From: Candidatus Omnitrophota bacterium
Lineage (GTDB): Bacteria > Omnitrophota > Gorgyraeia > Gygaellales > Profunditerraquicolaceae
Direction: 5' to 3'
Length of the DNA: 64,000 nt
NCBI GenBank assembly: GCA_049517335.1
Contig: JBEKSD010000011.1
Span: forward strand, 1 to 64,000
Position 1 is the first letter of the stretch; the number at the start of each line of letters is the position of its first letter. A model generated the notes under the pieces. The model ran no database searches. It worked only from the letters and a program-made list of their open reading frames with translations, and had not been told where the DNA came from. This document shows, piece after piece, positions 33,882-58,964 of this stretch. The position numbers and the translations under genes were made by a program.

Positions 33882-33887
33882 TAAGTA

Positions 33888-33945
33888 TCCGACGGAGAAA
33901 TCTGTCGGAGATTTTTTATGTAGCGATGTCCCTAGGAGTTAGGGC
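33888..33945 (+). terminator. Terminator followed by conserved GCGATGTCCCTAGGAGTTAGGG box
   Basis: TCCGACGGA-GAAA-TCTGTCGGA plus T-tract; box recurs at 43708 and 46499. Confidence 0.7.
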
Positions 33946-34154
33946 GTTATTTCCGTCGGAGAATTTCGCAATATTTTAAAACAAGATCTCCGTCGGAGGA
34001 GACAGGAATATTAAGTGCCAATTTTAAAAAAATAGCGCAATTCCTCTCGTAGTTTATGGGCGCTAGTTTATGGCTATTTCGCGATATTGCCGAATATTGG
34101 CACATCTAAATATGCCATAAACTAGGGAATAGGCCAGTTTTTCGAGGATAAACT

Positions 34155-40538: not shown

Positions 40539-40609
40539 AACTAGAGTCAGTCATAATTACTAAAGATTGATTCAGGTCTTACGACGACATCTAAAATAAG
40601 GAGGAATGC

Positions 40610-41110
40610 ATGAAAGCAGCAAGAAATGTGTTTTTCGGGTTAGCAATAGTAGGGGCAATAGTTTTTGTTTCAGGGGTATCATTCGCAGAAACCGCAACGT
40701 CAACGCCAACGTCAACGCCAGCGGCAGCAGCAAATGATGTATCAGCAGCAAAGCAAGCAAAACATGAAGCTAGAATTAAGCTTCTACAGGATTCCGCAGC
40801 AGCTCTTCAGACAACAAATCCAGATTTAGCAATGAAATTGACTGATATTGTGAATGGGGCATCAAAAGAGAAGACGGAAAGCAGCAAATTAGCAAAAGAC
40901 TCGGCTGAATGGAAAGCAAAGCACGATGCAAGAATACAGCTTTATAAAGACGCAGCAGCAGCCCTTCAAGCGACAAACCCGGATTTAGCAAAGGGTTTAA
41001 TGGATATGACAGTGCCAAAGCAGAAGACTGAAATGCAGAAGGCGGCTGAAGAAAAGAACGAGAAAGAAGAATCTGGAGAAAAGGTAGAGCCCAAGGGAAA
41101 CAGTAATTAG
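40610..41110 (+). CDS. Exported protein with an internal duplication
   Basis: Signal peptide; KHEARIKLLQDSAAALQTTNPDLA and KHDARIQLYKDAAAALQATNPDLA. Confidence 0.75.
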   Translation: MKAARNVFFGLAIVGAIVFVSGVSFAETATSTPTSTPAAAANDVSAAKQAKHEARIKLLQDSAAALQTTNPDLAMKLTDIVNGASKEKTESSKLAKDSAEWKAKHDARIQLYKDAAAALQATNPDLAKGLMDMTVPKQKTEMQKAAEEKNEKEESGEKVEPKGNSN

Positions 41111-41254
41111 TTCGAATCTCTTCAGGGGGGGTGAGAGGAGTAGTATTTCGGTGAGTTCGGGCCCCGTCAGGTACCCCAATAATTATCTTCTCATTCAGAG
41201 AGGTGAGAGCTTAAAGCCCTGATTACTTTGATTAATCAGGGGGAGGTAACTGAA

Positions 41255-42052
41255 ATGAAGGATGTGGTTAAAAGAGTTTACGGTGATATCGCAAAAAGCA
41301 AGAAGAAGAGTTGCTGTGGCCCAAAAAGCTGTGATTCCAGAGGTGCCACAGTATCCGAAAGAATAGGCTATACAAAAGAAGAATTGCAGTCAATACCTGA
41401 CGAAGCTGTCATGGGTTTAGGCTGCGGTAATCCTGTGGCACTTGCGTCCTTAAAAGAAGGTGAAACAGTAGTGGATTTAGGTTCAGGCGCGGGCATAGAC
41501 GTATTTCTTGCATCGCGCAGAGTAGGCGATAGTGGCAAAGTCATAGGAATAGATATGACTGAAGAGATGCTTAAACGCGCCAGAGAAAACGTAAAGAAAG
41601 GAGAATTCAGTAATGTCGAGTTTAAGCTTGGTGATATAGAGGCAATGCCGCTTGAGGATAATATCGCCGATTGTGTGATAAGTAACTGCGTGATAAATCT
41701 CGCGCAGGATAAGCAAAAAGTTTTTAATGAAGCGTTCAGGGTATTGAAGCAAGGCGGCCGGCTGATGGTCTCTGATATGGTTCTTCTAAAAGATCTTTCG
41801 GAAAAGATTTCAAAATCAGCCGAGATGTATGCGGGCTGTGTTGCCGGAGCATTGAAACGGGATGATTATATCGCCAAGATAAAGAACGCAGGCTTTAAAG
41901 ACATATCTATCATAAAAGAAGATCCGGTGCGCTTTCTCGACTATCTCGGCTCAGACAAGGTAGTAAGTAACATAATAGAGAATATGTCGGAAAAAGAAAT
42001 AGAAGAGATTAATTCATCCGTTGTCAGTATTAAGATATCGGCGAAAAAATAA
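41255..42052 (+). CDS. arsM: Arsenite S-adenosylmethionine methyltransferase
   Basis: SCC, GLGCGNP, DLGSGAG, ISNCVINL, GCVAGA. Confidence 0.9.
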   Translation: MKDVVKRVYGDIAKSKKKSCCGPKSCDSRGATVSERIGYTKEELQSIPDEAVMGLGCGNPVALASLKEGETVVDLGSGAGIDVFLASRRVGDSGKVIGIDMTEEMLKRARENVKKGEFSNVEFKLGDIEAMPLEDNIADCVISNCVINLAQDKQKVFNEAFRVLKQGGRLMVSDMVLLKDLSEKISKSAEMYAGCVAGALKRDDYIAKIKNAGFKDISIIKEDPVRFLDYLGSDKVVSNIIENMSEKEIEEINSSVVSIKISAKK

Positions 42053-42064
42053 ATCCATAATAAT

Positions 42065-42433
42065 ATGAAGAAGCGAAAGATCAAAAAAACATCGCTGAAC
42101 AAACGGGCGGTATATTTCTCTAGGAACATGTTGGAATTGAAACCTGATGTAGCGGGAGCACGGATGTGGGGAGTGGCCCTGGATAAGGTATTATTGACGT
42201 ATTTTGAAATGAAGCCAAACTGTAAATTTATCTATCATCGCCATAAAAGCGAACAAATCACTATGGTGCTAAGTGGTGAGTTGTTTTTTAAACTCAAAGG
42301 ACGGACTGTTTGCCTTAAAAAGGGTGAAGTTATCGCTATCCCTTCGAATGTAGCACATGCCGTTTACACAGCACATCTAGGTGTTCGGGCTATTGATGCC
42401 TGGTCGCCTGTTATGAAGCAATATAAGAAATAA
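42065..42433 (+). CDS. Cupin domain protein
   Basis: HRHKSEQ...IPSNVAH...DAWSP. Confidence 0.85.
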   Translation: MKKRKIKKTSLNKRAVYFSRNMLELKPDVAGARMWGVALDKVLLTYFEMKPNCKFIYHRHKSEQITMVLSGELFFKLKGRTVCLKKGEVIAIPSNVAHAVYTAHLGVRAIDAWSPVMKQYKK

Positions 42434-42463
42434 AAACAATCAAAAAGAAGGGTGGTTGTAAAC

Positions 42464-42892
42464 ATGAGAAAGAGCGATCTTGCAGTTTCTATGTTTAATG
42501 AAGGTTTTAGTTGTTCACAAGCGATTTTTTCCACTTACGGCAAAGAATTAGGTATAGACAGTGGAACCGCTATTAAAATTTCGGCACCTTTCGGCGGTGG
42601 TATGGCGAGGATGGGCGAGACTTGCGGTGCTGTAACAGGCGCATTTATGGTTATTGGACTTAAATACGCAGTAGGTAAAGATTCTAAAGATAAGGTTTAT
42701 TCGCTTGTTAAGAAGTTTGTGGATGATTTTAAGGCTCGTAACAAATCTATCGTTTGTAAAGAATTGTTGGGTTATGATATAAGTAAGCCTGAAGGAATGA
42801 AAACCATAAAAGAAAAAGATCTGATTAAAACTCTTTGCCCGAAATTCGTGAAAGACGCTGCGGAAATTCTGGAAAAGCTTCTTTTGACATAG
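42464..42892 (+). CDS. C_GCAxxG_C_C family redox protein
   Basis: SCSQA, FGGG, TCGAVTG, CKELLG, CPKFV. Confidence 0.88.
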   Translation: MRKSDLAVSMFNEGFSCSQAIFSTYGKELGIDSGTAIKISAPFGGGMARMGETCGAVTGAFMVIGLKYAVGKDSKDKVYSLVKKFVDDFKARNKSIVCKELLGYDISKPEGMKTIKEKDLIKTLCPKFVKDAAEILEKLLLT

Positions 42893-42961
42893 TATTTACC
42901 ATTAAGAATTAACTGGCATGACTGCCAGTTAATTCTATATTTTACCGCAGGAGGAAAGACT

Positions 42962-43525
42962 ATGGCACAGAAAAAGATCGCTGTTTTTGTAGGAAGCCTG
43001 CGCAAAGAATCATTTAACTGCAAAATGGCCAAGGCGCTAATTAAGGTTTCACCCGAATCGCTCAAGTTAGAGATTATCGAGATCGAAGGACTACCTTTAT
43101 ATAATCAGGACTTCGATGATAATCCTCCGGTTTCCTATACGCAATTCCGAGAATCTTTAAGAGAGTTTGACGCGGTTTTGTTTATTACACCCGAATACAA
43201 TCGTTCCGTTCCCGCCGTGCTCAAGAACGCTATTGATGTGGGGTCGCGTCCCTATGGGCAAAGCGCGTGGAATGGGAAGCCGGGTGCTGTGATGAGCGTC
43301 TCGCCTGGCGCTATAGGCGGATTCGGCGCAAATCATCATCTGCGCCAATCGCTGGTTTTCCTTAATGTTCCTACGATGCAACAGCCGGAAGCGTACATCG
43401 GGAATGCCGATAAGCTTTTTGATGAAAAGGGTAATCTTACTAACGATTCTACCCGTGAATTTATCACAAAGTTTATGCAGGCATTTGCAGAATGGATTGC
43501 GCGCTGCACGTCAAATAAAAAGTAA
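42962..43525 (+). CDS. NADPH-dependent FMN reductase (ChrR-like)
   Basis: GSLRKESFN, TPEYNRSVPAVLKNAID, SRPYGQS. Confidence 0.92.
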   Translation: MAQKKIAVFVGSLRKESFNCKMAKALIKVSPESLKLEIIEIEGLPLYNQDFDDNPPVSYTQFRESLREFDAVLFITPEYNRSVPAVLKNAIDVGSRPYGQSAWNGKPGAVMSVSPGAIGGFGANHHLRQSLVFLNVPTMQQPEAYIGNADKLFDEKGNLTNDSTREFITKFMQAFAEWIARCTSNKK

Positions 43526-43570
43526 TTGTGGCCTAAATTAGAGGGTATTCATCTGAGTATATGGCGATTG

Positions 43571-43732
43571 TGGTATAATTGACCTGTGTAAATTAAGAGA
43601 GGTTTCCCCTCGGCTTATACGAGAGGGACCCCAGTAATATCGTTCTCCTCGCATAACGGGAGAGTTTAAGGCCTATGATCGGAATACCGGTTATAGGCCT
43701 TTTTATCTAGCGAGTTCCCTAGGAGTTAGGGC
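43571..43732 (+). repeat. Repeat site B: -10 box, hairpin, CCAGTA, terminator, conserved box
   Basis: TGGTATAAT; 30-nt hairpin 43601-43630; terminator 43668-43704; near-identical to site C. Confidence 0.85.
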
Positions 43733-43954
43733 ATCGCATTTATTAGCCGTATTTCGATTATATCCGTACCATAAGCTGTTTTAAAAGCCTCTCTGAATAT
43801 CGCTGTTTAATCGCCAAAATAGGCCAATTCCTCTCTTATATAATGGTCGCTATATAATGAAAATATCGGCAATATTCGAGGTATTTTAGAGCTTTAGGAG
43901 GCCATTATATACAGGGAGAGAGGGGTTTTCTATCGTTACGCGGTAGGGTTTTTA

Positions 43955-44108
43955 AGCAACTTCTGCCACTTTTCTTTTTGTTTTTCCCAATCTAACTCGC
44001 GGCAGATTTCGCGGAGTTTGTATTCGGGGATAAAGGGAATGTTTGAATTGTCTGAAAACAGAATATCTTCTTGGATGCTTGGTGCAAGCATGAGCAGATT
44101 CATGAGTA
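43955..44108 (-). pseudogene. Remnant of a small recombinase-associated gene
   Basis: Minus strand LMNLLMLAPSIQEDILF...KLREICRELDWEKQ resembles proteins encoded beside serine recombinases (recognition from memory). Confidence 0.55.
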
Positions 44109-44154
44109 GATAGATTTTAACCTGGTTTATATTAAGCCAGCCAGGATGAAATCA

Positions 44155-45021
44155 TTATGATAAATTAAACCTACGAATGATTTTTTTTATCCTTCTAATA
44201 AAAAATACTCGTTCCAAAAAGAGTACTGTTCTATTTGAAATAATCCGAGTGACTGGTATTTTGCCTCCAAACTGATTTTTATCCAAAGCAAAATTATTAG
44301 GCAAATGATAACACCAAGCATCCGGGGGTATTTTATTTCCACTATCCACCGGAAGAAGAACTCTATGCTCATGTGGATGTTTCCATATCATGCCAGCAGA
44401 TGCACGCTCCCTTATTTTCCATTCAGGATGATTGCCATCCGTCCATGCCGGATGATTTATAAATTCCAACATTTGCTTTTTGGTATATATCCAAAATGCG
44501 TGATAAGGGGCTGGAGTCAGGAACCACTTCAAATTCTCTATTGTTTTAAAAATTGGAGTATAAGCTTTTTTACCAAAATCTGAACTCATAATTACCCCCT
44601 TAGGACTTTTTTCGACTCTTAAAAAGCCTCTGATATATCCTTGCGGATAAATAATAAGGGTGTCTTTATACCATCTTACAATAGCATCCCATTGCACTAA
44701 AATATCATCTTCAATATACATAAAAAAATCATAGTTCTTTATGTTTTGCAGCATATTGCCACGGTGTTGCCACGTTAGCAGCCATGGATGCTTTAAGTTT
44801 TCATGCACCTGTATCCTGATTTTTAGACCACAAATAAATTCGCTAGGAAGTTTTTTTTCTGTTTCCGAACTATTTGTATCAATCACAATGTCTATTTCTG
44901 AAAATTTATAGGAACGAAAATTATCTAATACCTTAGCCAAGTAGTGAATTCTTTCCTTCACATAATGAAATGCGATATGGACTAGAAGCCTCCCTGGAAT
45001 TTCTTGGCAAGAATTAAGCAT
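44155..45021 (-). CDS. Putative GT-A glycosyltransferase-like protein
   Basis: IDIVIDTN and YDFFMYIEDDILV (DxD-like). Confidence 0.55.
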   Translation of the reverse strand: MLNSCQEIPGRLLVHIAFHYVKERIHYLAKVLDNFRSYKFSEIDIVIDTNSSETEKKLPSEFICGLKIRIQVHENLKHPWLLTWQHRGNMLQNIKNYDFFMYIEDDILVQWDAIVRWYKDTLIIYPQGYIRGFLRVEKSPKGVIMSSDFGKKAYTPIFKTIENLKWFLTPAPYHAFWIYTKKQMLEFINHPAWTDGNHPEWKIRERASAGMIWKHPHEHRVLLPVDSGNKIPPDAWCYHLPNNFALDKNQFGGKIPVTRIISNRTVLFLERVFFIRRIKKIIRRFNLS

Positions 45022-45310
45022 AACCTTCTCTAGCTCCTTCTTTCAACCATATTTGATTCTTCTTAACAGCATAACCTCTAAAGCGTTTAGAAATGACGGG
45101 GGATGAAATAATTGTATTTCTACGTCGTCTTCTTTATATACGGTTTTCTTAGTATTAAAAGGTAGCCTTTTCACTATTCTAAGCATTAAGTTTTTATCCA
45201 TATTGAATATTATACGCTTGAAAGTTAACTTTGCAACTTCGTAATATGTAATGTAAAAAGTAGTCTAAATAATATCCTCATCCTCTCAAGGGGCTCTCTA
45301 GCAGTGTTTG

Positions 45311-45360
45311 GAGAGTTTTCCCCTTACTGGATATTCATGGACGCCCTTATGGGGATCACC
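45311..45360 (+). repeat. Variant att-like site (family 2)
   Basis: GAGAGTTTTCC...ATATTCATGGACGCCCTTATGGG; homolog of 34155-34205. Confidence 0.5.
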
Positions 45361-45441
45361 CTATAAATTTTCTCATACTTGAATTGGTGGATAAACTAAG
45401 ATATAATCATATATAATATTTACATAGGTAGGAGGTTAATC

Positions 45442-46098
45442 ATGAAAATTAATTTTGAAAAAGCCGTTTCATATATTGGTACCCTGTATGAGAACGATGA
45501 AGCGTCCAAAATAAATTATATTAAATCGACAGAACTAAAAAACTTCGGAACAGTTGTAGATAGCGACGTTTCAAGAATGATGCAGCTATTAATACGTTTG
45601 GTACGACCGCAAAGGATCTTATAAATTGGAACAAGTGTAGGTTATTCAACAGTATCTATGGCTAACATTGCTAAAGAATACGGAGGTAAAATTACCACGA
45701 TTGAGTATAATGAACAATCAGCAAAGCAGGCAATAAAGAATTTTGAACGTGCTGGAGTTGCTGAACTTATCGAGGTAAAAATCGGTGACGCAAAGGAAAT
45801 CATTCCAACTTTAAAAGAAAGCTTTGACTTAATATTTCAAGATGTCGGAGATAAAATGCTTTATTCTGTATTACTAAATGATTTAGTCACTCTTCTAAAA
45901 CCAGGTGGAGTGTTATTGGCTGAAGATTCCCTTTTACCTTGTGCGAACCTCAAAAACTCCGACTTTGATCAAGCAGAATGGAATAGTGCAGTGAAAGCTC
46001 TCGATAAATTCAACAAAATGATTGCTCAATGCCCAGATTTAAAAAGTACATTACTTCCCATTGGTGATGGATTGACTATAGGCATAAAAATAGGTTAG
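45442..46098 (+). pseudogene. O-methyltransferase (YrrM/CCoAOMT-like) with a nonsense codon
   Basis: RPQRIL*IGTSVGYS: TAA 45622-45624 replaces the Glu of the LEIGT motif; both halves are in frame. Confidence 0.85.
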
Positions 46099-46341
46099 TA
46101 CAAGGAAGCAGCTTAATTAAACATATTAATTCAAGGAATAGTATCTGAACTAGCCAGCCAATTGAACAGCAGGGTAGTAAATTACCAATGTCCGGACAAA
46201 GATAGGCGGACAACCCTATCTCCTAATTACTCAAAGAGTTACGCGATTTTAAGCCAAAAATGACCGGACAAAACGGACGCATTTTCGAGCTTTTTTGTCC
46301 GTCACCAGGCCAGTAATGTGCCTCTCTAAAGCAGATAATTC

Positions 46342-46523
46342 TTGCTCTAATAGGGTAAGGGCTATATAATTGGTAGCTAGGAATTAAGAGAGGTTTCCCC
46401 TTGGCTCATACGAGAGGGACCCCAGTAATATCGTTCTCCTCATAGTATTGGATAGTTTAAGGCCTATGATCGCAGTAGCGGTTATAGGCCTTTTTATCTG
46501 GCGATGTCCCTAGGAGTTAGGGG
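46342..46523 (+). repeat. Repeat site C: promoter, hairpin, CCAGTA, terminator, conserved box
   Basis: TTGCTC-17-TATAAT; hairpin 46392-46421; terminator 46459-46495. Confidence 0.85.
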
Positions 46524-46596
46524 GGTTACTTACGAATGTTACAAAAGTTATAAAATAACCATTGCAATTGTTTATAAAATGATATAAAATGTTATA

Positions 46597-46794
46597 ATGG
46601 AATTGATACAGAAGTTAGATATATATCGCTTGGAAAACAGAATCTCCCAACAGTCGTTAGCCGCGAAGTTGGGAGTTTCTTTTGTTACGGTAAATAGATG
46701 GTTTAATAATAAGACCAAGCCGAATAAAATTCAAAGGTATCATATTAATAAATTTCTTAAGAACATTAAAGGAGGGGAGAAGCATGGAAAATAA
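46597..46794 (+). CDS. XRE-family HTH protein
   Basis: SQQSLAAKLGVSFVTVNRW. Confidence 0.85.
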   Translation: MELIQKLDIYRLENRISQQSLAAKLGVSFVTVNRWFNNKTKPNKIQRYHINKFLKNIKGGEKHGK

Positions 46795-47050
46795 TGGTTT
46801 AGGATATTGGGTGTGGTTTCTCCTTATCGGTGCGGTGATAGGGTGGTTGGCAGGGCTCATCGTCAGAGGCCGGGGGTTTGGGATTATCGGAGATATCGTA
46901 GTCGGGGTTGTAGGAGCTATGCTTGGTGGATGGATGGGGAGAGTAATAGGAATATATCCCGGCAGTTCAATTGGCGCGTTTTTAATGGCTCTTGTAGGTG
47001 CGGTGCTCTTAGTAGGCCTGACGCGCTTCATTAAACGAATAGCCGCATAA
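46784..47050 (+). CDS. GlsB/YeaQ/YmgE family membrane protein
   Basis: GWLAGLIVRGRGFGIIGDIVVGVVGA. Confidence 0.9.
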   Translation: MENNGLGYWVWFLLIGAVIGWLAGLIVRGRGFGIIGDIVVGVVGAMLGGWMGRVIGIYPGSSIGAFLMALVGAVLLVGLTRFIKRIAA

Positions 47051-47084
47051 GTAGTAAATTATGTCTGTACGCTAGGATAACAAT

Positions 47085-48266
47085 ATGAGACAAAAGATGT
47101 TATGCCGCTTGTTTATATTAGTAACTTGTATTTCGACATTATCAGGGTGCGCCCATCTGCGAAATGCTGTACCGGAAAATCTTGTTGGTACGGCCGTCGT
47201 TGTCGGTATGCCGGATATGCGCTATTATACAGGTAAGCCTGAGTCTCTCTTTATGCGGCAGAGTCTGGCAGATTCGTTTAAAGACGAAGGTAAATCAGAA
47301 TATCTGGTTGACGGTATAAAGACCTATCCGGTGCTTATTATCGGAGGGGGTGTATCTAACAGTGCTTACGGCTTAGGACTATTGAAAGGATGGTTAAAGG
47401 AAGGGTCTCGGCCGGCATTTAAAATAGTTACTGGCTATTCGAGCGGATCAATCCTCGCTGTTGCCACGTTTTCAGGAAAAGACTATGAAGAACGGCTTGC
47501 GGACCTATTCACCTCGATATCTACCAAAGATGTTGTGAAACAGAGGAGCAGTTTTGCCCTTCTATTTGGAGATTCTGTGGTTAGTTCAGTTCCATTAGCT
47601 AAGAAAATCGATGACCTTGTGGATGAAAATTTAATGGTAAGGATCGCACAAGAGCATAGGAAGGGGCGCAGACTATATGTGGGAACCACGGATTTTGACG
47701 CCCAAGGGTTTGTTATATGGGACATGGGAGCACTTGCTTCCATTGGAGGCCCCGATTCGCTGAAAATGTTCCGCAAAATAATTCTAGCTTCATGTTCATT
47801 CCCAGCTATGCTTCCTCCGGTCTATTTTCAAGTTGAAGCCGGAGGCAGGCGTTATGATGAGATGCATGTTGATGGAGGGGTCATGGGTGGAGTTTTTTAT
47901 ATCCATCAGTTAATGGAAGGTGGGGGATTTAAAGAATTCAGAACTCGATTATATATCTTAAATCTGTGTTATATGTCACCGCACTCCAAACAGGTAGAAG
48001 ACAACCTGGTGGCGATAACATCACGCCTGATTGAAAGCAATGGAGCGTCAAAAATGATCGGGGATACTTACAGGCTTTACGCTTTCGCTAAAGAAAAAGG
48101 ATGGGATTATAATTTAGCCTATATTCCAGAAGATTTTAAGCCTTATCAAAAAGAGATGTTCGATAGGCAGGAGATGCAGAGGCTCTTTAAACGCGGATAT
48201 GACGATGCGGTAGTAGGATATAAGTGGCACAAAGCTCCGCCTGGACTTGTGGCAGATGGTAAATAG
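47085..48266 (+). CDS. Patatin-like phospholipase, lipoprotein
   Basis: Lipobox LSGC; GGG, GYSSG, VDGG. Confidence 0.85.
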   Translation: MRQKMLCRLFILVTCISTLSGCAHLRNAVPENLVGTAVVVGMPDMRYYTGKPESLFMRQSLADSFKDEGKSEYLVDGIKTYPVLIIGGGVSNSAYGLGLLKGWLKEGSRPAFKIVTGYSSGSILAVATFSGKDYEERLADLFTSISTKDVVKQRSSFALLFGDSVVSSVPLAKKIDDLVDENLMVRIAQEHRKGRRLYVGTTDFDAQGFVIWDMGALASIGGPDSLKMFRKIILASCSFPAMLPPVYFQVEAGGRRYDEMHVDGGVMGGVFYIHQLMEGGGFKEFRTRLYILNLCYMSPHSKQVEDNLVAITSRLIESNGASKMIGDTYRLYAFAKEKGWDYNLAYIPEDFKPYQKEMFDRQEMQRLFKRGYDDAVVGYKWHKAPPGLVADGK

Positions 48267-48290
48267 CCCGTTATACGTAATGGAGGATAT

Positions 48291-48485
48291 ATGAATAAAG
48301 GTATGTCGGTTGCGCTTTTAGTTGTAGGAGTTCTCTTGTTAGTTCTTGGGTTAAATGCGTATCACTCGACTAGTTCCGATGTTTCGCGATTTTTTACGGG
48401 TGCGCCTACAGATAAGGCTCTTTGGCTTCTGATTGGTGGAACGATCGCTGGTATAGTAGGGTTTTCAGGTTTAATTAAAAAATAA
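48291..48485 (+). CDS. DUF3185-like small membrane protein
   Basis: SDVSRFFTGAPTDKALWLL. Confidence 0.8.
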   Translation: MNKGMSVALLVVGVLLLVLGLNAYHSTSSDVSRFFTGAPTDKALWLLIGGTIAGIVGFSGLIKK

Positions 48486-48550
48486 GATAGTGTTCGTTTT
48501 AAAATATAGCGAGGCTGAATGAAGAACTTAAAAGTTTATTTAAAGCTCGT

Positions 48551-51235
48551 ATGAATACTAGAAAACAGATTATTCGGTTTTTAATTACGGGCACTACTGT
48601 CAATGCAACAGACTTTAGTATCTATTATATTTTATTTCATTTTTTTTCTTATAGTATATCCAAGGGTATCTCTTTTACGTGCGCTGGTATTGTTGGGTAT
48701 TTACTTTTGAAATATTGGACATTTAAACATAACCAACCATCGTATACTGAAGTTGGCCGGTATGCGTTAATTAATTTTTTAGCATTAGGCGTCAATGTTT
48801 TAACAAATCAAAGCATCCTTAACTTGCGGCCCGGTTCTGTTTTTTTAGCTTTAATTATCGCTTCGGCCTTAACAGGATTGTTTACCTTTGTTTGTTTTAA
48901 ATGGTGGGTTTTTAGATCCTCTTTGAAAGAGAGGATCTATTTTGTATGGTGGAAATGGCTCCCCTGGAGATTTTTAGTAAGAGACGCTGCGCGTAGGCAA
49001 GGATTTTTAGATCCGATTAAGCTCCTTTCTCAATTGCAGAATTTTGCCCAACCCTCAGAGGTGGCAGTTCCGATGGAACTGTTGCGTTCAGGCGTTGTCT
49101 TACACGCTCGGGGCTTGATAAATAGTCTAGCCATTCAGCATAACCTTGATTGGATCTGGCCTTATTGGGTAGAATGCCAATATAACCCTCGGAACGAGGC
49201 GTTTATCCCGCGGTCATTTTCGTTGACTCAAATTAATCTTACCCATAGAAATTGGACAGCTTTGGGTGTTCCTGACGGGACTGAATTTCCTCTTGTAGAC
49301 CCTCGCGGCCTGGTTACTCCCTATTACGACAGTTGGTCTATTGATGTTTGGATTGTTCCGGAGAAGGGAGAGCCATTAATTCCATCGCGCCTGCCTGCCG
49401 GACAAGCAGATAGCCAAAACGTATCGCAGAAGTTGAGTTTAAATGATAATCTTTGTGTGGTCACAGAATCCTGCTTGGATCAATTAAAGCTTCAATTGAC
49501 AACGCAAGTTATCGGTTCAGCCGCAGTGCCTATTTGTCAGGTTAAAATCACAGGAACAGCTGGCGTAAAGGCCAAGTTAGTTATTTCGCTTAGGCCCTAT
49601 AATCCCGAAGGCGTGAGTTTCATTAATAGCATTACTCTTCTTGAGGATTCGCTAGGTTGGCAAATAAACGGGAAAAGTTTCGTCTATTTCGATAAGCCGC
49701 CGGATCAATGCGTATTTTCGGATTATCGTAGAGGAGATGTTTATAGCCGCCTGTCGTCGAAGGAAAATGAAAAAGAAATTTTAAGTAAAGTCGGTATGGC
49801 AAGTGCGGCAGCAATATATATATTGGAATCAGGGTTTGCGCTAGAAATTAACATTTCAATGCCTTTAACAAAAAACAAAATTGAAAAAGAATCTTGTCGG
49901 GACTATGAAGAGTCTGCGAAATTAGCGTGGAAGAATAGTCTTCAAGGCGCCTGTTTATTACAAATTCCCGATAAACATTTTCAGTTTCTCTACGAAGCCG
50001 CTATCCACACCATGGTTTTGCATTCTCCCAAGGAAGTATATCCGGGACCTTATATTTACCGGCGGTTTTGGTTTCGCGATGCAGCTTTTATATTAAATGG
50101 CTTGTTGTGTGTCGGACTAAAGGAACGTGTTCGAAGGGCTTTGGATTGTTTCCGTTCTCGTCAAACAGCTCAAGGTTATTTTCTCTCTCAGGAAGGGGAA
50201 TGGGATTCTAACGGAGAGGCCTTGTGGATTATGCGTCAATATTGTGAGATGACTGGAAATCTTCCGCCACAAGAATGGAGAGAGTCGATTACTAAAGCGG
50301 GTAAGTGGATTTACAAGAAGCGCTTGTCTAGTAATTTGCAATCTCTCCATGCAGGATTATTACCTTCGGGATTTAGCGCCGAGCATTTAGGGCCGAATGA
50401 TTTTTATTATTGGGATGACTTTTGGGCTGTTGCGGGGTTAAGAGCAGCATCATTTTTGTGCTCCGCTTACAATGATAATGATGAAGCTGCTTATTTTGAA
50501 ACGGAATCACACGCTTTGTTGAAGAGCATTAATCAAAGTTTAAAGAAAGTAGAAGTTCGTTTAAAAAGGCCTGCGATACCCGCCTCTCCTTATCGGCGTT
50601 TGGATTCGGGAGCGATTGGTTCTTTGGCTGCCAGTTATCCGCTGCGGGTCTTTGAGCAGAGCGATCCGAGGGTTTTAGACACAGCCGATTTTTTAATGAA
50701 AAATTGTTTAGTTCACGGCGGATTTTTTCATGACATGACCCATTCAGGAATCAATCCTTATCTTACGTTACATTTAGCCCAAGTGCTTTTGCGTGCAGGT
50801 GATCCCAGATATTTTGGTTTGATGGACGCGGTGGCTAAACTGGCTTCACCTACAGGACAATGGCCGGAGTCAGTACATCCGCGTACAGGCGGTGGATGCA
50901 TGGGGGATGGACAGCATGTTTGGGCCGCAGCGGAATGGGTTTTGATGATCAGAAATTGCTTTGTGCGCGAAGAAGGTAACCGGTTAATTTTATGTTCTGG
51001 AATCCCACGAGCCTGGATTGATAAAAATCAAGCCATTAAGTTTGGGCCTGCTCCTACAAGTTTCGGGGATATTCAAATTTCTATAGAACCGCGAGGGGAG
51101 AATATTCTTGTCGAATGGAGGGGCAATTGGTTTGCGAAAGAACCTCTGATGGATATTCAATTACCGGGTTTTAAAAGCGTAAGGATTACCCCTGCGACAA
51201 ATTCTCTTGAATTCAAAATTGAGGCGGGTAAATGA
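48551..51235 (+). CDS. GtrA-like domain fused to a six-hairpin glycoside hydrolase-like domain
   Basis: N-terminal 4-TM GtrA pattern (QIIRFLITG, KYWTF, KWWVF); FWFRDAA, EWDSNG, YYWDDFW, GQWPE. Confidence 0.75.
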   Translation: MNTRKQIIRFLITGTTVNATDFSIYYILFHFFSYSISKGISFTCAGIVGYLLLKYWTFKHNQPSYTEVGRYALINFLALGVNVLTNQSILNLRPGSVFLALIIASALTGLFTFVCFKWWVFRSSLKERIYFVWWKWLPWRFLVRDAARRQGFLDPIKLLSQLQNFAQPSEVAVPMELLRSGVVLHARGLINSLAIQHNLDWIWPYWVECQYNPRNEAFIPRSFSLTQINLTHRNWTALGVPDGTEFPLVDPRGLVTPYYDSWSIDVWIVPEKGEPLIPSRLPAGQADSQNVSQKLSLNDNLCVVTESCLDQLKLQLTTQVIGSAAVPICQVKITGTAGVKAKLVISLRPYNPEGVSFINSITLLEDSLGWQINGKSFVYFDKPPDQCVFSDYRRGDVYSRLSSKENEKEILSKVGMASAAAIYILESGFALEINISMPLTKNKIEKESCRDYEESAKLAWKNSLQGACLLQIPDKHFQFLYEAAIHTMVLHSPKEVYPGPYIYRRFWFRDAAFILNGLLCVGLKERVRRALDCFRSRQTAQGYFLSQEGEWDSNGEALWIMRQYCEMTGNLPPQEWRESITKAGKWIYKKRLSSNLQSLHAGLLPSGFSAEHLGPNDFYYWDDFWAVAGLRAASFLCSAYNDNDEAAYFETESHALLKSINQSLKKVEVRLKRPAIPASPYRRLDSGAIGSLAASYPLRVFEQSDPRVLDTADFLMKNCLVHGGFFHDMTHSGINPYLTLHLAQVLLRAGDPRYFGLMDAVAKLASPTGQWPESVHPRTGGGCMGDGQHVWAAAEWVLMIRNCFVREEGNRLILCSGIPRAWIDKNQAIKFGPAPTSFGDIQISIEPRGENILVEWRGNWFAKEPLMDIQLPGFKSVRITPATNSLEFKIEAGK

Positions 51236-52686
51236 TAAAAGATCTTGTAGCTAAAGTTAGAGATTTTGTCATAGTGAATTTGGAGGCAAAAGTTTACCCG
51301 GAAGAGATTGAGAAGTTCTATACAAAAATTGCTCCTATTAAAGAGATGTGCGTCTTTACTGTTTCCGGAATGGAAGGCGTAAAAGAATCGAGAGTGCTTT
51401 GGGCTATCATACAACCGGATCTTGATAATTTCAGGAAATTTGCCTCAGTGAATCTACATTTAGCCATTAAGGAGAGATTTGATAATGCCGAGCAATCGTT
51501 GCCTATTTATAAAAGGATTAAAGGTTTTACTATCACACTTGATGACCTGCCGCATGACCTGATTGGTAATTTAGATAGAAATGCGGTTAAAGAAATATAT
51601 GAACCTAGGGTAATCGCGGGAATAGAGGGTGCTCTTCCGGTTTTAGGAGAGTTAACGGCTGCGGACCATCTGTTGATAGAATCCGCAATCGGCATAAGAA
51701 TCTCGGAATGCTTAAAGGAACAGGGTGGCGTTAAAAGGCCGATAATACTGGAGGATTCTTTAGAGTTGGACTTGGGTATAGATTCATTAGGCAGGGTAGA
51801 GCTTGCTTTACGTCTTGAGTTAGCTTTTAGTATTGATATAAAAGACGAGGTAGTCTCCAGAGCTTTTACCGTAAAGGATCTTATTCTGGGAATAATGGAA
51901 GCCTTAAGAGGGGCCAAACCCATCTCCCCGGAGGATCAAGGGATATCTTTAGGGTTAAATTTCTGGAAAGAAAGTTTAAGGGTACTGCCTAAAGAAGAAC
52001 ATTTGGGGGCGCTTGAATTCAGTACCGGTTTTTTCGCCTGGCTGCTTCGATTTAGTATAACAGCAATAGATTTTTTGATTTTTAAATTGTTTTTCCATAT
52101 TAAGGCTGAAGGAGCAGAGAATGTACCTAAAGAAGGAGCTTATATTCTGTATCCCAACCACACCAGCGATCTTGATGGGCCGGCTATTAACGCTTGCTTG
52201 CCGCGTAGGCCGGTGTTTCAGCTTTTTTATTTTTTATTCATACCTTATTTCTTTAGGCCGTTTATAAAATCAACTTTTTTAAGAAATCTCGTTAAGATGG
52301 AAAGACTTATTCCTTTTGATTATTCAGCGCATTTTCTGGAGGCGTTACGCAGTGCCTATTTAGTCTTGCAGCGCGGTAAAGGCTTGTGTTTTTTCCCGGA
52401 AGGGTTGCGCAGTACTACTGGCGAAGTTGGGAAATTTAAAAAAGGTTTCGGTATCTTGGCTAAGGAAACGGGAGCAAAGCTTGTTCCTGTGGCTATAGAA
52501 GGGGCTTTTGAGGCATGGCCCAGTACGGTAAAGTATCCCAAATTCCGCGCGATTAGAGTCAGATTTGGCAAGCCGTTTCTCCCTGAAGATTTAGAAAAAG
52601 AAGGGTTGGCCATGGGCGCACAAGACTCTTATGAAGCAATATGCGTGGCGGCAAGAAAAGCGCTTATAGAATTGAAGGCTAAATAA
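51232..52686 (+). CDS. Truncated AMP-binding C-domain + ACP + PlsC acyltransferase fusion
   Basis: KVYPEEIE; LGIDSLGRVEL; NHTSDLD, FPEG. Confidence 0.8.
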   Translation: MIKDLVAKVRDFVIVNLEAKVYPEEIEKFYTKIAPIKEMCVFTVSGMEGVKESRVLWAIIQPDLDNFRKFASVNLHLAIKERFDNAEQSLPIYKRIKGFTITLDDLPHDLIGNLDRNAVKEIYEPRVIAGIEGALPVLGELTAADHLLIESAIGIRISECLKEQGGVKRPIILEDSLELDLGIDSLGRVELALRLELAFSIDIKDEVVSRAFTVKDLILGIMEALRGAKPISPEDQGISLGLNFWKESLRVLPKEEHLGALEFSTGFFAWLLRFSITAIDFLIFKLFFHIKAEGAENVPKEGAYILYPNHTSDLDGPAINACLPRRPVFQLFYFLFIPYFFRPFIKSTFLRNLVKMERLIPFDYSAHFLEALRSAYLVLQRGKGLCFFPEGLRSTTGEVGKFKKGFGILAKETGAKLVPVAIEGAFEAWPSTVKYPKFRAIRVRFGKPFLPEDLEKEGLAMGAQDSYEAICVAARKALIELKAK

Positions 52687-54047
52687 TGAATATTCTTATG
52701 ATGACCAATACTTATTTTCCGATGGTCGGAGGGTTAGAGCAATCGGTTTATTCTTTTAGCGAGGCATTTAGAAGCTTAGGGCATGAGGTTTTGATTGTTA
52801 CTCCGGCTTTTGGTGGCGCGCCGAAAGAGGAACCAGGCGTTATTCGAATTCCTGCTTTCCAAAAATTTGGAGGGACTGTTTTTTCGGTTAACTTTCCGAT
52901 TTCCGGACTCTTAAAGCGATACATGAAAGAATTCGTACCGGATATGGTGCACAGCCACGGCCCGTTTTTCATGGGAGATTTCGCGTTACGCCTTAGCCGG
53001 CAGCACGCCATACCGCTTGTATTTACTTATCACTGTATGTTTGAACAGTATGTGCATGATTGGCCAGTTCAAAATGAGGGAGTAAAAAGATTTATGGTCA
53101 AGCTTGCTGCTGGATATTCCAATTTAGTAGATCAGGTAATCGTGCCTAGCGAAAGCGTGCAGGATATTTTACTTAAAAGAGGTGTTAAGACTCCCATGGA
53201 GGTTATCCCGACAGGGATAGATGCCCAACGTTTTGCAAAAGGCGACGGAAAAGCTTTTCGAAAGCAGAACCAGATCCCTTCCGATGCTTTAGTGGTTGGC
53301 CATGCTGGTAGACTGTCTCCGGAAAAGAATTTGGGGTTCCTGACAAATTGTTTGGTTGAATTATTAAAAAGAGATCCTAGGGTTCATGCCCTGATCGTGG
53401 GCCTTGGCCCATCGCAAAATTTGATTAAGGACGCTTTTAGAACAGCTGGCCTTGAAAAAAGATTACATTTAACCGGGGTTTTACGTTATCAGGATTTAGT
53501 GGATGCTTATTTTGCCATGGATGTTTTCGCATTTGCTTCATTAAGCGAAACGCAAGGGATTGTTCTTATCGAAGCCATGGCAGCAGGGGTTCCGGTGGTG
53601 GCGTTGGATGCGCCGGGAGTACGGGAAGTTGTAGAAGATTATCACAACGGTCGGTTGCTCAGCCAGATGGATCAGCAAAGTTTTATTGATGCGCTTATCT
53701 GGGTTTTATCCCGGACTCCTGAAGAGTTACAAACCATAAAGCAGATCGTAAGAATGACGGTACAGAAATACCCGATTATGTCTGGTGCCAAACATATGTT
53801 AGAGATTTATGATAAAATTAGATCCAGGAGATCGGTTTCCTTAGGTAAAAAAAATAGTTCGCGGTATCTCATCCAGTGGCGCATGAAAGCGGAGTGGGAT
53901 ATTTGCAGCAATTATATTAAATCCGTAGTTACATCAGTATTCGAAGGAGGCTTTCAGAAAACAGAACCCATAAAAATTAAAGATACGACGGTAAAAAGTG
54001 GAGACCCTCTATCTAATAGTGCGACCAAGGGTTACTTAAAACAATGA
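52686..54047 (+). CDS. Glycosyltransferase family 4
   Basis: GRLSPEKN, SETQGIVLIEAMAAG. Confidence 0.92.
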   Translation: MNILMMTNTYFPMVGGLEQSVYSFSEAFRSLGHEVLIVTPAFGGAPKEEPGVIRIPAFQKFGGTVFSVNFPISGLLKRYMKEFVPDMVHSHGPFFMGDFALRLSRQHAIPLVFTYHCMFEQYVHDWPVQNEGVKRFMVKLAAGYSNLVDQVIVPSESVQDILLKRGVKTPMEVIPTGIDAQRFAKGDGKAFRKQNQIPSDALVVGHAGRLSPEKNLGFLTNCLVELLKRDPRVHALIVGLGPSQNLIKDAFRTAGLEKRLHLTGVLRYQDLVDAYFAMDVFAFASLSETQGIVLIEAMAAGVPVVALDAPGVREVVEDYHNGRLLSQMDQQSFIDALIWVLSRTPEELQTIKQIVRMTVQKYPIMSGAKHMLEIYDKIRSRRSVSLGKKNSSRYLIQWRMKAEWDICSNYIKSVVTSVFEGGFQKTEPIKIKDTTVKSGDPLSNSATKGYLKQ

Positions 54048-54808
54048 CTCCTAATTTTACTGGGGAGAATTGTTCCGTGATGACCGAGGATGGGAAACGT
54101 ATTGCCTTGATTCACGTTAAAGGAGGATTTTCCAAAGTTATTATTATCGCTCACGGTTTTTATAATAACAAGGATACATTTTTATTTCGAGGGATAACTG
54201 AGGCGTTTAGTAAAGAATACGATGTTATCGTGTTCGATTTTCGAGGCCATGGCAAGAGTAGTGACGTGTTTACCTGGACAGCGCGTGAACAAAAAGATTT
54301 GCGAGCGATCATTGTCTACGCCAAAGATAATCGCTATACCAAAATTGGCGTGATTGGTTTTTCGTTTGGCGCAGCGATCGCCATGATTGAAGCCAGCCAT
54401 CATCAGAATATTGATAGCCTAATCGCTGTTAGCGCCCCTGCAGATTTAAGAAGTATCAATTATCATTTTTGGGAAAAAGATATGTGGGAAGATTTAAAGC
54501 TTAATTTTGGGATCAAGGGGCAGGGTAAGGGGGTCAGGCTGGGTAGTCTTTCTTTAGAAAAGATTCGACCCATTGATATTGTTGATAAGATATCGCCCAC
54601 GCCAGTACTTTTTGTTCACGGTGAAAAAGACTGGCTGGTTAAGCCAAACCATAGCCAGCGTTTATTTGAAAAAGCAAAAAACCCTAAAGCTCTGACGATC
54701 ATTAAAGATGGTGGCCATGCGGAAAGGATGTTTGATGTTTTTCCTGATCAATTTATGAAAATATGCTTAGATAGATTTAGGAAAACTTTAGAAGAGGCGA
54801 ATCCATGA
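54044..54808 (+). CDS. Alpha/beta hydrolase
   Basis: HGF, DFRGHG, GFSFG, HGEKD, GGH. Confidence 0.9.
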   Translation: MTPNFTGENCSVMTEDGKRIALIHVKGGFSKVIIIAHGFYNNKDTFLFRGITEAFSKEYDVIVFDFRGHGKSSDVFTWTAREQKDLRAIIVYAKDNRYTKIGVIGFSFGAAIAMIEASHHQNIDSLIAVSAPADLRSINYHFWEKDMWEDLKLNFGIKGQGKGVRLGSLSLEKIRPIDIVDKISPTPVLFVHGEKDWLVKPNHSQRLFEKAKNPKALTIIKDGGHAERMFDVFPDQFMKICLDRFRKTLEEANP

Positions 54809-56085
54809 AAAATGAAAAGAAAAAAAAGAAATTACTTAAGGGAAAATGCCAGAATCAGGTAAAAACCCGCAGCGTCGCGGAAAGAATGATTATTAAGCAG
54901 CTTCACCAAGAAATTGAACAGCGTAAAAAAACAGAACAAGTAGCTCAGGATGCACGTAATTATGCCGAAAATATCATCAACACCGTACGTGAATCCTTAA
55001 TTGCTCTGGACCAAGATTTAAGAGTAGTCTCCGTAAGCCGTTCCTTTTATGAATTCTTTAAGGTAAAGCCTGAAGATACCGTGGGGCAGCTTATTTATGA
55101 CTTGGGCAATAAGCAGTGGAATATCCCCAAGCTGCGGGAATTGCTGGAAACCATCCTTCCCCAAAAAACTACCTTTGATAACTATGAGGTTGAACACGAT
55201 TTTGCTACCATCGGCAGGCGTATAATGCTTTTGAATGCCCGGCAAATTAAACGCGTGATGGGTAAGGAGCGGATCATTCTTCTGGCTATAGAGGATATTA
55301 CTGAGCGTAAGAAGATAGAAAACGGCTTGGAAAAAGCCCATGAAGAGTTGCAGGATTTGGCTGCTGAGTTAAAACGTAGCACTCGGGCAAAATCTGAATT
55401 CCTGGCCAATATGTCGCATGAGCTTAGGACCCCACTTAACTCCATCAATGGTTTTTCCGAGATATTATTTGATGGGACTTTCGGTTCGCTTAATGAGAAG
55501 CAGGAAAAATACGTGAATAATATTTTAACCAGCGGAAAGCATCTTCTTTCATTGATAAATCAGATACTTGATATGGCAAAAGTTGAATCCGGAAAGATGA
55601 AGCTGACATTATCCAGCTTACCCATGAAAAGCCTGTTAAATGAGATTGCGCTGCTGGTAGCGGATATGGTCAGCAAAAAGAAGATCGAAATGTTGCTTGA
55701 GATAGCGGAAGATCTGCCGAATATTGAAGCGGATGAACTTAAGGTAAAAGAGATACTTTATAACCTACTTTCCAACGCAGTTAAATTTACCCCTGAGGGT
55801 GGTAAGATCGGCATGCGGGCACAAAAGGTTGATTCTAAAATAGAAGTAGTGGTCTGGGATACGGGGGCTGGTATCGCATTTGGGAATATGGAGAAAATAT
55901 TTGAAGGTTTTTTTCGTGTTGATACTCCATATTCCCGGGTAACTGAAGGGACCGGGCTCGGTTTACCGATCTCGAAAAAACTGGTTGAGCTGCATGGCGG
56001 CAAGTTTTCTGTAGAATCAGAGGGACTAGGTAAAGGCACGCAAGTCAGGTTTACTTTACCGATTATAGCTAGAAAGGTGGTTTGA
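54805..56085 (+). CDS. PAS sensor histidine kinase
   Basis: PAS domain; MSHELRTPLN; NLLSNAVKFT; DTGAG; GTGLGL. Confidence 0.93.
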   Translation: MKNEKKKKKLLKGKCQNQVKTRSVAERMIIKQLHQEIEQRKKTEQVAQDARNYAENIINTVRESLIALDQDLRVVSVSRSFYEFFKVKPEDTVGQLIYDLGNKQWNIPKLRELLETILPQKTTFDNYEVEHDFATIGRRIMLLNARQIKRVMGKERIILLAIEDITERKKIENGLEKAHEELQDLAAELKRSTRAKSEFLANMSHELRTPLNSINGFSEILFDGTFGSLNEKQEKYVNNILTSGKHLLSLINQILDMAKVESGKMKLTLSSLPMKSLLNEIALLVADMVSKKKIEMLLEIAEDLPNIEADELKVKEILYNLLSNAVKFTPEGGKIGMRAQKVDSKIEVVVWDTGAGIAFGNMEKIFEGFFRVDTPYSRVTEGTGLGLPISKKLVELHGGKFSVESEGLGKGTQVRFTLPIIARKVV

Positions 56086-56086
56086 A

Positions 56087-56452: not shown

Positions 56453-56494
56453 GTTTTTAATATATCAGAAAGTCAAATTTAAAAGAGGTACGGG

Positions 56495-58953: not shown

Positions 58954-58964
58954 AGTAAGAGCTA

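Follow-up and report, generated by a model that had tools for sequence, protein, structure and literature searches.

Two similar units, B (43571-43735) and C (46342-46525), lie on the forward strand of the window, the whole 64,000-nucleotide stretch of Candidatus Omnitrophota DNA analysed here (Table 1). In each, a TATAAT box is followed about 21 nt on by a 32-nt hairpin and then by a predicted 15-bp intrinsic terminator, and the two units are 89% identical across 141 nt. The original prediction had taken them for small-RNA genes free of any ORF, and neither unit indeed holds an ORF of at least 50 aa; at a cut-off of 20 aa, B has one 38-aa minus-strand frame and C has frames of 21-27 aa. The runs listed as containing 43300-46800 are all DNA runs, from peat, wetland and pond.

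Table 1. Predicted features of units B and C and of related copies in the window (P arm, promoter and hairpin half; P′ arm, terminator half).
Feature	Position	Strand	Description
LSR gene, 618 aa	32025-33881	+	array head; Pfam Resolvase + Recombinase + Zn_ribbon_recom
Junction A	33840-33947	+	core-like ACCCCAGTA within the 618-aa LSR ORF, in its 3′ end; variant P′ arm follows
B extended -10 box	43571-43572, 43574-43579	+	TG, then TATAAT; right end (P arm) of left-hand element
B conserved P-arm block	43597-43633	+	hairpin 43601-43632; candidate att core ACCCCA 43628-43633 at end
B P′ arm	43634-43734	+	left end of next element; same arm directly behind tRNA-His of relatives
B P′ arm parts	43643-43664, 43668-43701, 43700-43734		short inverted repeat; terminator stem, then T-run; conserved box
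LSR gene remnant	43939-44139	-	C-terminal 67 aa only; just right of B (200 nt)
C promoter	46342-46370	+	TTGCTC (46342-46347), 17 nt, TATAAT (46365-46370); P arm of the B-C element
C conserved P-arm block	46388-46424	+	hairpin 46392-46423; candidate att core ACCCCA 46419-46424
C P′ arm	46425-46525	+	left end of next element; degenerate short repeat; terminator 46459-46492; conserved box 46491-46525
D1, P arm only	58264-58345	+	TTGATA, 17 nt, TATAAT (58264-58292), hairpin, core; a 172-aa ORF replaces the terminator arm
D2, P arm only	58966-59029	+	TATAAT, hairpin, core 59024-59029

Promoter, hairpin and terminator

Reading the sequence bears out the promoter elements described in the original prediction: a -10 box ahead of the hairpin, a -35 box at a spacing of 17 nt in C and D, and a TG-extended -10 in B. 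B has no usable -35 and would depend on the TG extension, and a simple promoter scan misses both junction promoters because each -35 hexamer has fewer than 4/6 matches. An nhmmer profile recovered 30 distinct left-half copies, 26 of which carry a perfect TATAAT at constant distance, and half (15/30) have a -35 with 5/6 matches at 17 nt. The predicted sigma-70 promoters at the junctions are thus backed by positional conservation. The conserved P arm, with promoter and upstream repeats included, is about 150 nt long. The usual LSR half-site is far shorter, which suggests that this arm has some function besides recombinase binding.

Within the hairpin's own subfamily, only one of 10 pairs changes on both sides, a result equalled by 414 of 500 shuffles. 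The other P-arm subfamily has a hairpin of unlike sequence at the same position, and this shared position hints at selection on structure, whether of RNA or of DNA. The 120-nt stretches fold with z-scores of -4.5 (B) and -3.2 (C), mostly contributed by the terminator, and the hairpin alone reaches -1.7 and -0.8, respectively. A helix between GAGA before the hairpin and TTCTC after the core, which had been suggested from the sequence, is absent from both minimum-energy folds, and each partner is kept where the other is missing. Instead, the partner of TTCTCC is a GGAGA further along, and the short repeat they form is conserved as sequence, with covariation at 1/8 pairs. Neither unit matches Rfam 15 at gathering score, and a search of 43400-46700 at E values up to 10 returned chance-level miRNA and snoRNA models as its best matches. 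The sole gathering-score match in the whole window is a c-di-GMP-I riboswitch outside B and C.

The terminator is under selection. A terminator scan detects those of B and C, each with 15 pairs of which 7 are G:C. Over 43300-46800 it finds 7 terminator-like sites, where shuffled sequence gives 2.6 ± 1.7. At the top of the stem, B has a G:C pair and C has C:G, confirming the compensatory change that had been noted between the two units. Across 17 copies, 10/15 pairs covary, 96% of cells are paired, and none of 500 shuffles matches the score; this covariation is present both in the rows behind tRNA-His and in the seam rows. With a stem-loop, a T-run and compensatory changes, both structures have the properties expected of intrinsic (Rho-independent) terminators. 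This covarying terminator is also present behind genes for tRNA-His, tRNA-Glu and tmRNA, where the junction promoter is absent. This agrees with the other option raised in the original prediction, that the terminator is a plain insulator.

Separable halves and recombinase context

B and C are not chance arrangements: pieces of them turn up in 24 of the 60 other genomes searched within the order (BLAST), and full units of this type are present in four other genomes (L019, L022, L046 and L024). Homology to the left half breaks off at GGGACCCCAG; sequences that match only the right half begin at ACCCCAG. The two halves are also found apart in related Candidatus Omnitrophota genomes, and their meeting point is the 6-nt core ACCCCA, which is the 3′ end of tRNA-His. 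The promoter with its hairpin and the terminator therefore come from opposite ends of two separate elements, as had been proposed for the ends. By eye, the blocks to the left and right of the core agree at 5/8 positions when one is reverse-complemented, with an apparent dyad centre 2-3 nt to the right of the homology break. Separable arms joined at a short core common with the target are what would be expected of an att junction, and the B and C sequences fit this description.

On its own, the left half precedes other DNA, and the downstream flank after GGGACCCCA varies in most copies. The type-1 terminator arm follows only 7 of the 30 left halves. Among the 23 left copies without it, 11 are followed, no more than 250 nt on, by an ORF of at least 50 aa and an SD-like motif, as counted by the criteria of our own script. 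The second P-arm subfamily precedes glmS on one contig (C10) and an amidase gene on another (C18).

The right half occurs alone behind tRNA-His(GTG), whose 3′ end gives the core, in three relatives (G051, G012 and G040). A pattern of tRNA-His followed by the terminator arm, with at most one mismatch, was found in 27 of 234 genomes compared with 2 for the reversed control; we set the 27/234 figure aside because, of 12 pattern loci checked, just 6 were genuine joins of tRNA-His and right half. Homologues of a 536-aa LSR are encoded at 21 loci. A convergent tRNA-His gene lies near 7 of these and a convergent tRNA-Glu gene near 2, in each case 300-1000 nt downstream of the LSR gene and with a P′ arm behind it; the other 12 have no convergent tRNA within the stretch fetched. 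In G040, attL at tRNA-His is followed 14.5 kb on by a full unit of the B/C type, and in G046 it is followed 17.7 kb on by a left half. A DUF2924 gene precedes the LSR gene in relatives.

The 67-aa remnant beside B aligns at 79% identity with residues 470-536 of a 536-aa LSR, that of the G012 tRNA-His element (tblastn), and 43628-44139 is collinear with, and 85% identical to, the left end of that element. An LSR gene thus appears linked to the att-type site in relatives and, as a remnant, at B. In the same genome as the window, members of this LSR family sit at tRNA-Glu (C7) and tmRNA (C18), with homologous P′ arms directly past the CCA end. The tRNA-His gene of this genome is empty, has its own terminator and lies on a different contig from the array.

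By Pfam, the LSRs here are Resolvase/Recombinase/Zn_ribbon proteins, and the analogy to IS110 junction RNAs in the original prediction accordingly falls away. An IS110-type bridge RNA was also considered and rejected: Pfam searches of 35 window ORFs and of the element genes of relatives revealed no DEDD/RuvC-like transposase. The 618-aa LSR at the head of the array is merely 23-25% identical to the tRNA-His LSR family (tblastn), and it has only distant relatives, at 31% identity or less, in 23 of 60 other genomes. The P′ arm at junction A shares the conserved box but has another terminator, and the DNA to the right of A (33854-34125) matches the P′ arm of a tRNA-His LSR element in L078 at 79% identity across 275 nt.

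Interpretation of the B and C units

We consider it probable that B and C are attP-type seams, each consisting of P arm, core and P′ arm, of tandemly stacked and decayed LSR integrative elements. LSRs of this family would insert at the 3′ ends of small-RNA genes, here tRNA-His, via the common core ACCCCA. The P′ arm would land directly behind the RNA gene, where its terminator would substitute for that of the gene and would shield the converging LSR gene from antisense transcription. We regard this substitution, together with the shielding of the recombinase gene, as the most likely role of the P′ terminator. The P arm would supply an outward sigma-70 promoter and a 5′-proximal hairpin ending exactly at the core, and would transcribe whatever DNA lies downstream. 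Where elements abut, the promoter of one would meet the terminator of the next, and a dead-end transcript of approximately 115-120 nt is predicted at the seams. The claim that such an RNA is confined to circle or tandem junctions is only partly right: seams do form a promoter-terminator unit, but the other 22-23 copies would be transcribed too, into an ORF or into another terminator.

Several points count against the seam reading. Canonical LSRs are not known to join attP to attL, attR or another attP, so tandem accretion would require a relaxed (Ccr-like) enzyme or some other route. The array stands away from tRNA-His, whose gene is empty on another contig. The length of the conserved P arm, the differing hairpin of the second subfamily and the 12 LSR loci with no convergent tRNA in the stretch fetched also weigh on this side. 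In contigs of four peat DNA runs mapped on 40600-60500, we observed no recombination joints. Six joints in those contigs (e.g. from 43651 to 46880, or from 46317 back to 43584) are explained by the paralogous copies E and G on the same contig, and are uninformative on recombination.

A rival reading that builds on the original prediction is a dedicated small RNA, made only in the circle or at seams, through which the state of the element would be sensed or controlled. The near-consensus promoter is conserved and the terminator strong, the attP of a circle would hold the same unit, and the four genomes with full units add to this case, as do the state-dependent promoters known across attP in ICEKp1 and ICEclc, according to the available text of PMC13023037. 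We nevertheless regard such a gene as very unlikely. The terminator arm is missing after most left halves and stands promoterless behind three kinds of RNA gene, and the hairpin shows no covariation, nor does any covariation link the halves. Rfam is blank, and no target or partner is evident. Inheritance as a unit and covariation outside the terminator, both expected of a trans-acting small RNA, were not found, with the differing hairpin of the second subfamily leaving some room. The idea of a small-RNA gene dedicated to regulating recombination is not supported, with the halves inherited separately, no hairpin covariation within the subfamily and a blank Rfam result. It is very unlikely, in our estimate, that the P arm is transcribed from its promoter into an RNA that mimics how the target RNA ends. 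Such an RNA, with a 5′-proximal hairpin whose final 6 nt match the 3′ end of the target gene, could act as a recombinase decoy or guide in target choice or timing. Only in the circle or at tandem seams would the P′ terminator define where this RNA stops. Three target-specific P-arm ends do occur in this genome, namely ACCCCA for tRNA-His, GGGACA for tRNA-Glu and CCACCA for tmRNA, and the tRNA-His version has a GGU...ACC closing stem akin to the G-1:C73 end of tRNA-His.

Two further readings concern the DNA around the units. An attenuator or riboswitch-like leader would switch the genes that follow C, where an HTH gene begins at 46597, and those that follow copy H, and promoter, structured leader, terminator and same-strand genes are in place at both, with GAGAGG and CCTCTC-type runs that could pair alternatively. 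We give this reading very little credence, as the DNA downstream of B and behind tRNA-His is the antisense strand of an LSR gene, which leaves nothing to regulate, and promoter-like sites that could serve the HTH gene separately lie at 46562-46598. Moreover, the folds show the terminator stem in no alternative pairing, and Rfam stays blank even at E values up to 10. It is likewise highly improbable that the hairpins are attC-like sites recombined as folded single strands, with D1-D2, E-F and F-G as gene cassettes of an integron-like array. The layout invites the comparison, since one contig holds eight same-strand hairpin copies, spaced in units down to 0.7-1 kb with a single ORF, and relatives also have arrays. 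However, the 35 ORFs scanned at 32-63 kb include no tyrosine integrase, the linked recombinases are serine enzymes, the hairpin spans only about 32 nt, and R′′-L′′/L′-R′ boxes were not seen by eye. Copy G is a 438-nt deletion derivative of junction C, which indicates that decay can yield small units. On the seam reading, B and C only look like small-RNA genes and are what the stacking of mobile DNA would ordinarily leave behind, here in the genome of an uncultured peat bacterium.

Significance and comparison with known systems

One false small-RNA candidate is removed by this analysis, which also provides a signature for such look-alikes, namely a promoter and a terminator meeting exactly at an att core. 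In addition, it reveals a widespread serine-recombinase element family at tRNA-His, tRNA-Glu and tmRNA in Candidatus Omnitrophota; the literature we searched held no paper on Omnitrophota LSR elements at these three targets. Should the two-module design hold, it would account for the tolerance of small genomes to repeated insertion at essential RNA genes, and for the resemblance of decayed stacks to promoter-equipped arrays of gene cassettes.

Ccr recombinases, which mobilize SCC elements, are promiscuous, and SCC inserts at the 3′ end of rlmH (orfX), which encodes a protein, unlike the RNA gene here. We know of no promoter/terminator end modules in SCC. As in the array described here, SCC and SCCmec (CcrAB/CcrC) form LSR-driven stacks of elements at one chromosomal site that include recombinase-less pseudo-elements and have att repeats at their seams, as outlined in the accessible part of PMC3146451. 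Prochlorococcus tycheposons also sit at tRNA genes, where newer insertions push older ones inward and leave scattered remnants and partial att sites, and their tandem repeat junctions have been detected by PCR (bioRxiv 10.1101/2020.12.28.424599, available portion). They differ in that 910 of 937 have tyrosine recombinases and in that their flanking repeats, as that portion describes them, are partial tRNAs rather than a promoter/hairpin module.

Joined ends that create a new transcription unit are described for ICEclc (Pcir) and ICEKp1 (P3′end), where, as here, an outward sigma-70 promoter lies opposite the integrase end and a terminator near the integrase end modulates the far-end promoter (PMC13023037, text available in part). 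In those elements the promoter drives the integrase, whereas here the LSR gene is antisense to the promoter and the terminator would block the transcript. The likeness to the bridge (seeker) RNAs of IS110/IS1111 (cf. PMC11187229) is only loose and lies in the idea of a non-coding RNA at the joined ends of the circle. There is no DEDD-type transposase here, the RNA would hold the att core in place of loops complementary to target and donor, and a structured RNA has no backing from covariation.

The closest precedent appears to be the tandem ssrA islands of Dehalococcoides, in which a reverse-strand LSR gene of about 540 aa lies next to attL (McMurdie et al. 2011, PMC3146451, as far as the available text goes). 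The ssrA/DsiB islands resemble the elements here in being stacked past a small RNA gene and bounded by repeats of its 3′ end, in carrying an LSR of about 540 aa on the reverse strand by attL, and in including islands without a recombinase; these are read in the same partial text as cis-mobilizable elements formed by accretion. The member of our family at tmRNA parallels the ssrA target. Within the compass of that text, there are also differences: the elements here mainly target tRNA-His, sister elements use tRNA-Glu and tmRNA, the core is 6 nt compared with 20 bp, and a DUF2924 gene rather than DsiA stands ahead of the LSR gene. An outward promoter with a hairpin at the far end and a portable terminator at the near end are undescribed for the Dehalococcoides islands in the portion of PMC3146451 available.

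Two separable halves in junctions B and C

The two candidate small-RNA genes, B and C, are 89% identical over 141 nt, spaced 2791 nt apart, and have the same order on the + strand: a TATAAT box, about 21 nt, a 32-nt hairpin, the core ACCCCA, a short inverted repeat, a terminator with a 15-pair stem and T-run, and a conserved 35-nt box that closes the unit. The -10 box is TG-extended in B and has TTGCTC 17 nt ahead of it in C, while the top terminator pair is G:C in B and C:G in C. Neither unit contains an ORF of at least 50 aa or matches an Rfam family. The original prediction of a -10 box, a hairpin, a terminator with a compensatory change, and no ORF is thus borne out, with two caveats. The TATAAT boxes are present, but a simple promoter scan listed neither promoter because the -35 hexamers are weak in both, and the proposed GAGA/TTCTC helix is absent from the predicted folds of B and C.

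The left half, which carries the promoter and hairpin and ends in ACCCCA, occurs in eight copies on this contig, all on the + strand. Only B, C and the last of these copies (near 73636) are followed by the terminator half. When the C unit was compared by BLAST against 60 further genomes from the same order, 24 matched; matches to the left half ended at about ..GGGACCCCAG, and those to the right half alone began at ACCCCAG. Across all the fetched DNA, a profile search identified 30 distinct left halves (10 in the own genome and 20 elsewhere), which lead into a B/C-type (type-1) terminator arm in 7 cases, a variant arm in 1, and unrelated sequence in 22. By our script's criteria, an SD-like motif together with an ORF of at least 50 aa lies within 250 nt of 11 of the 23 left copies that lack a type-1 arm.

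Element arms at tRNA-His and other RNA genes

In three related genomes (G051, G012 and G040), a lone right half is directly preceded by a tRNA-His(GTG) gene, and the core is the tRNA's own 3′ end, ..CCACCCCA. This join was true at 6 of 12 inspected pattern-search loci, the remaining 6 being chance matches. A convergent 530-537-aa gene lies 0.3-2.6 kb from the tRNA on these contigs; its product has Resolvase, Recombinase and Zn-ribbon domains, and a DUF2924 gene precedes the gene. Among 21 homologous large serine recombinase (LSR) loci from named MAGs, most of them Candidatus Omnitrophota, the convergent tRNA is tRNA-His at 7 and tRNA-Glu at 2, each followed by the terminator arm, and is absent from the fetched stretch at 12. 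In G040, a complete B/C-type unit 14.5 kb from attL leads into a further element, and in a fourth genome (G046) a left half 17.7 kb from attL is followed by other DNA. The left half at the visible far ends and the terminator half behind the tRNA point to the terminator half as the tRNA-proximal arm (P′) and the promoter/hairpin half as the distal arm (P), consistent with the prediction that promoter and terminator come from opposite cassette ends. The full unit then reads as P-core-P′, the arrangement expected in a circle's attP and at a seam between tandem elements, and B and C are quite likely seams of this kind.

Seventeen aligned terminator arms (seven P-core-P′ seams, nine behind tRNA-His, and one further own-genome copy) pair in 96% of cells, with both-side changes in 10 of 15 pairs and a covariation score that 0 of 500 shuffles reached. 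This covariation spans seam and tRNA-His rows, and the terminator is thus under selection with or without a junction promoter upstream. Conservation of the short repeat adjoining the core lies in its sequence (1 of 8 pairs covaries). The same applies to the left hairpin, where 28 copies show covariation in 1 of 10 pairs, a result matched by 414 of 500 shuffles. Promoter conservation is high, with TATAAT in 26 of 30 left-half copies and a 5/6 -35 match, spaced 17 nt from it, in 15 of 30. At about 150 nt, the conserved P arm exceeds what a serine-recombinase half-site requires, and it contains the repeated motifs CCGGACAAA and CCTCTCT/AGAGAGG. Upstream of its promoter, CCGGACAAA-type motifs recur together with a second ..CCAGTAAT.. 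similar to a degenerate tRNA-His end, and they may be nested relics of older att sites. Short repeats in the P′ arms, three to four in number (two direct, one or two inverted), vary in sequence from element to element, with the AGTTTATGG type after junction A and the TATATAATG type after B. The A type also occurs in another tRNA-His element (L078), and the repeats may be protein-binding sites.

Sister elements are present in the own genome. An LSR family member (58% identity) lies at tRNA-Glu on contig C7, and a homologue adjoins tmRNA on C18, where the match covers residues 31-140 in one reading frame and 142-533 in another, and the gene is therefore probably frameshifted or broken. A homologous P′ arm directly follows both RNA genes, and a profile search with the promoter region identified a second P-arm subfamily on four contigs. 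This subfamily has the same promoter, a hairpin of different sequence at the same position, and a tail that is the target's 3′ end (GGGACA for tRNA-Glu, CCACCA for tmRNA); two of its arms lie directly upstream of the housekeeping genes glmS and N-acetylmuramoyl-L-alanine amidase.

A stack of apparently decayed elements

Right of the B core, 513 nt (43628-44139) match the left end of the G012 element at 85% identity and retain a C-terminal LSR fragment; the remainder of that gene is gone. At junction A, a 618-aa LSR ORF has a C-terminus set by the junction, as it crosses the core-like ACCCCAGTA and stops inside a variant P′ arm that shares 79% identity with the arm of L078 across 275 nt. Copy G lacks 438 nt of junction C. 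This deletion places the att core region against the middle of a Transgly_assoc gene and exemplifies the origin of small 'cassettes' by deletion. Together, the LSR remnant, junction A and copy G indicate that the array is best read as a stack of decayed elements. The decayed B-C element also contains a split O-methyltransferase gene, probably a pseudogene. The own-genome tRNA-His is on another contig, unoccupied, with its own terminator 6 nt after CCA, and no recombination event was seen among the contig joints of four DNA runs, all of which are explained by the paralogous copies E and G. A Phage_rep_O-like gene beside the 618-aa LSR points to a separate replicative mobile element at the head of the array. 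The contig also encodes two adjacent giant ORFs, a c-di-GMP-I riboswitch, and radical-SAM genes, with further radical-SAM-like ORFs between hairpin copies past the window end.

Coordinates of features in the window and elsewhere in the own genome (L017, fetched stretch beyond the window)
Feature	Position	Strand	Remark
Unit B	43571-43735	+	Sequence read directly
Unit C	46342-46525	+	Sequence read directly
Left halves, in window	starts near 43597, 46388, 58309, 58993	+	
Left halves, past window end	starts near 66804, 67797, 68525, 73636	+	Same contig
CCGGACAAA and CCAGTAAT repeats	46240-46330; 58200-58250; L017 6640-6740		Upstream of P-arm promoter
P′-arm short repeats	34050-34150; 43838-43912		
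LSR fragment, 67 aa	43939-44139	-	79% identity to last 67 residues of G012 recombinase
LSR ORF, 618 aa	32025-33881	+	
Core-like ACCCCAGTA, junction A	33840-33848		Within 3′ end of 618-aa ORF
Copy G	G000:C11:68519-68728 (L017 8519-8728)		Junction C minus 46442-46879
O-methyltransferase (PF01596)	45442-46098	+	60-aa and 146-aa frames
Phage_rep_O-like gene (PF04492)	31214-31576	+	Just upstream of 618-aa LSR
tmRNA-linked LSR	G000:C18:14390-15891	+	
Second-subfamily P arm	G000:C10:4281-4427		
Second-subfamily P arm	G000:C18:11211-11315	-	
Second-subfamily P arm	G000:C7:3571-3718	-	
Second-subfamily P arm	G000:C28:7046-7153		
c-di-GMP-I riboswitch	30648-30740	-	75 bits, E 6.6e-13; upstream of 221-aa ORF
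ORF, 221 aa	29990-30655	-	
Giant ORFs, 2408 and 4403 aa	3814-24248	+	Adjacent
Three radical-SAM genes	59521-63458		Downstream of hairpin copy D2

Proposed mechanism and known systems

We propose that an inserting element comes to lie between an RNA gene and the DNA that follows it. The P′ arm would provide a new terminator for the RNA gene and keep antisense transcription out of the convergent recombinase gene, and the P arm would supply a promoter for the downstream DNA; the roles inferred for these modules are somewhat probable. With a second element downstream, the promoter would abut the terminator, so that a futile RNA some 115-120 nt long would be expected, and B and C look like sites of this predicted RNA. 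The idea that the junction RNA regulates recombination does not match this mechanism, given the separable halves and the absence of an Rfam family. Its fallback, in which the terminator merely insulates the promoter, agrees with the mechanism, as the terminator is under selection regardless of a junction promoter. A functional P-arm transcript that mimics the 3′ end of the target RNA is very unlikely; this reading keeps a small chance because two subfamilies retain the hairpin at the same position with different sequences.

In the literature searched, no paper combined Omnitrophota with serine recombinases, or large serine recombinases with tRNA-His. The array has the same architecture as the tandem ssrA islands of Dehalococcoides, which have a 540-aa serine recombinase on the reverse strand adjoining attL and repeats of the RNA gene 3′ end at each seam, with recombinase-less islands accounted for by accretion (PMC3146451). 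The 618-aa LSR ORF crossing junction A likewise resembles the dsiB overlap with attP/attL described there. SCC composite islands share this architecture too, and tycheposons (bioRxiv 10.1101/2020.12.28.424599) do so more loosely. In ICEclc and ICEKp1, outward promoters cross attP and drive the integrase gene (PMC13023037), whereas the Omnitrophota recombinase gene is antisense to the promoter and would be shielded from it.
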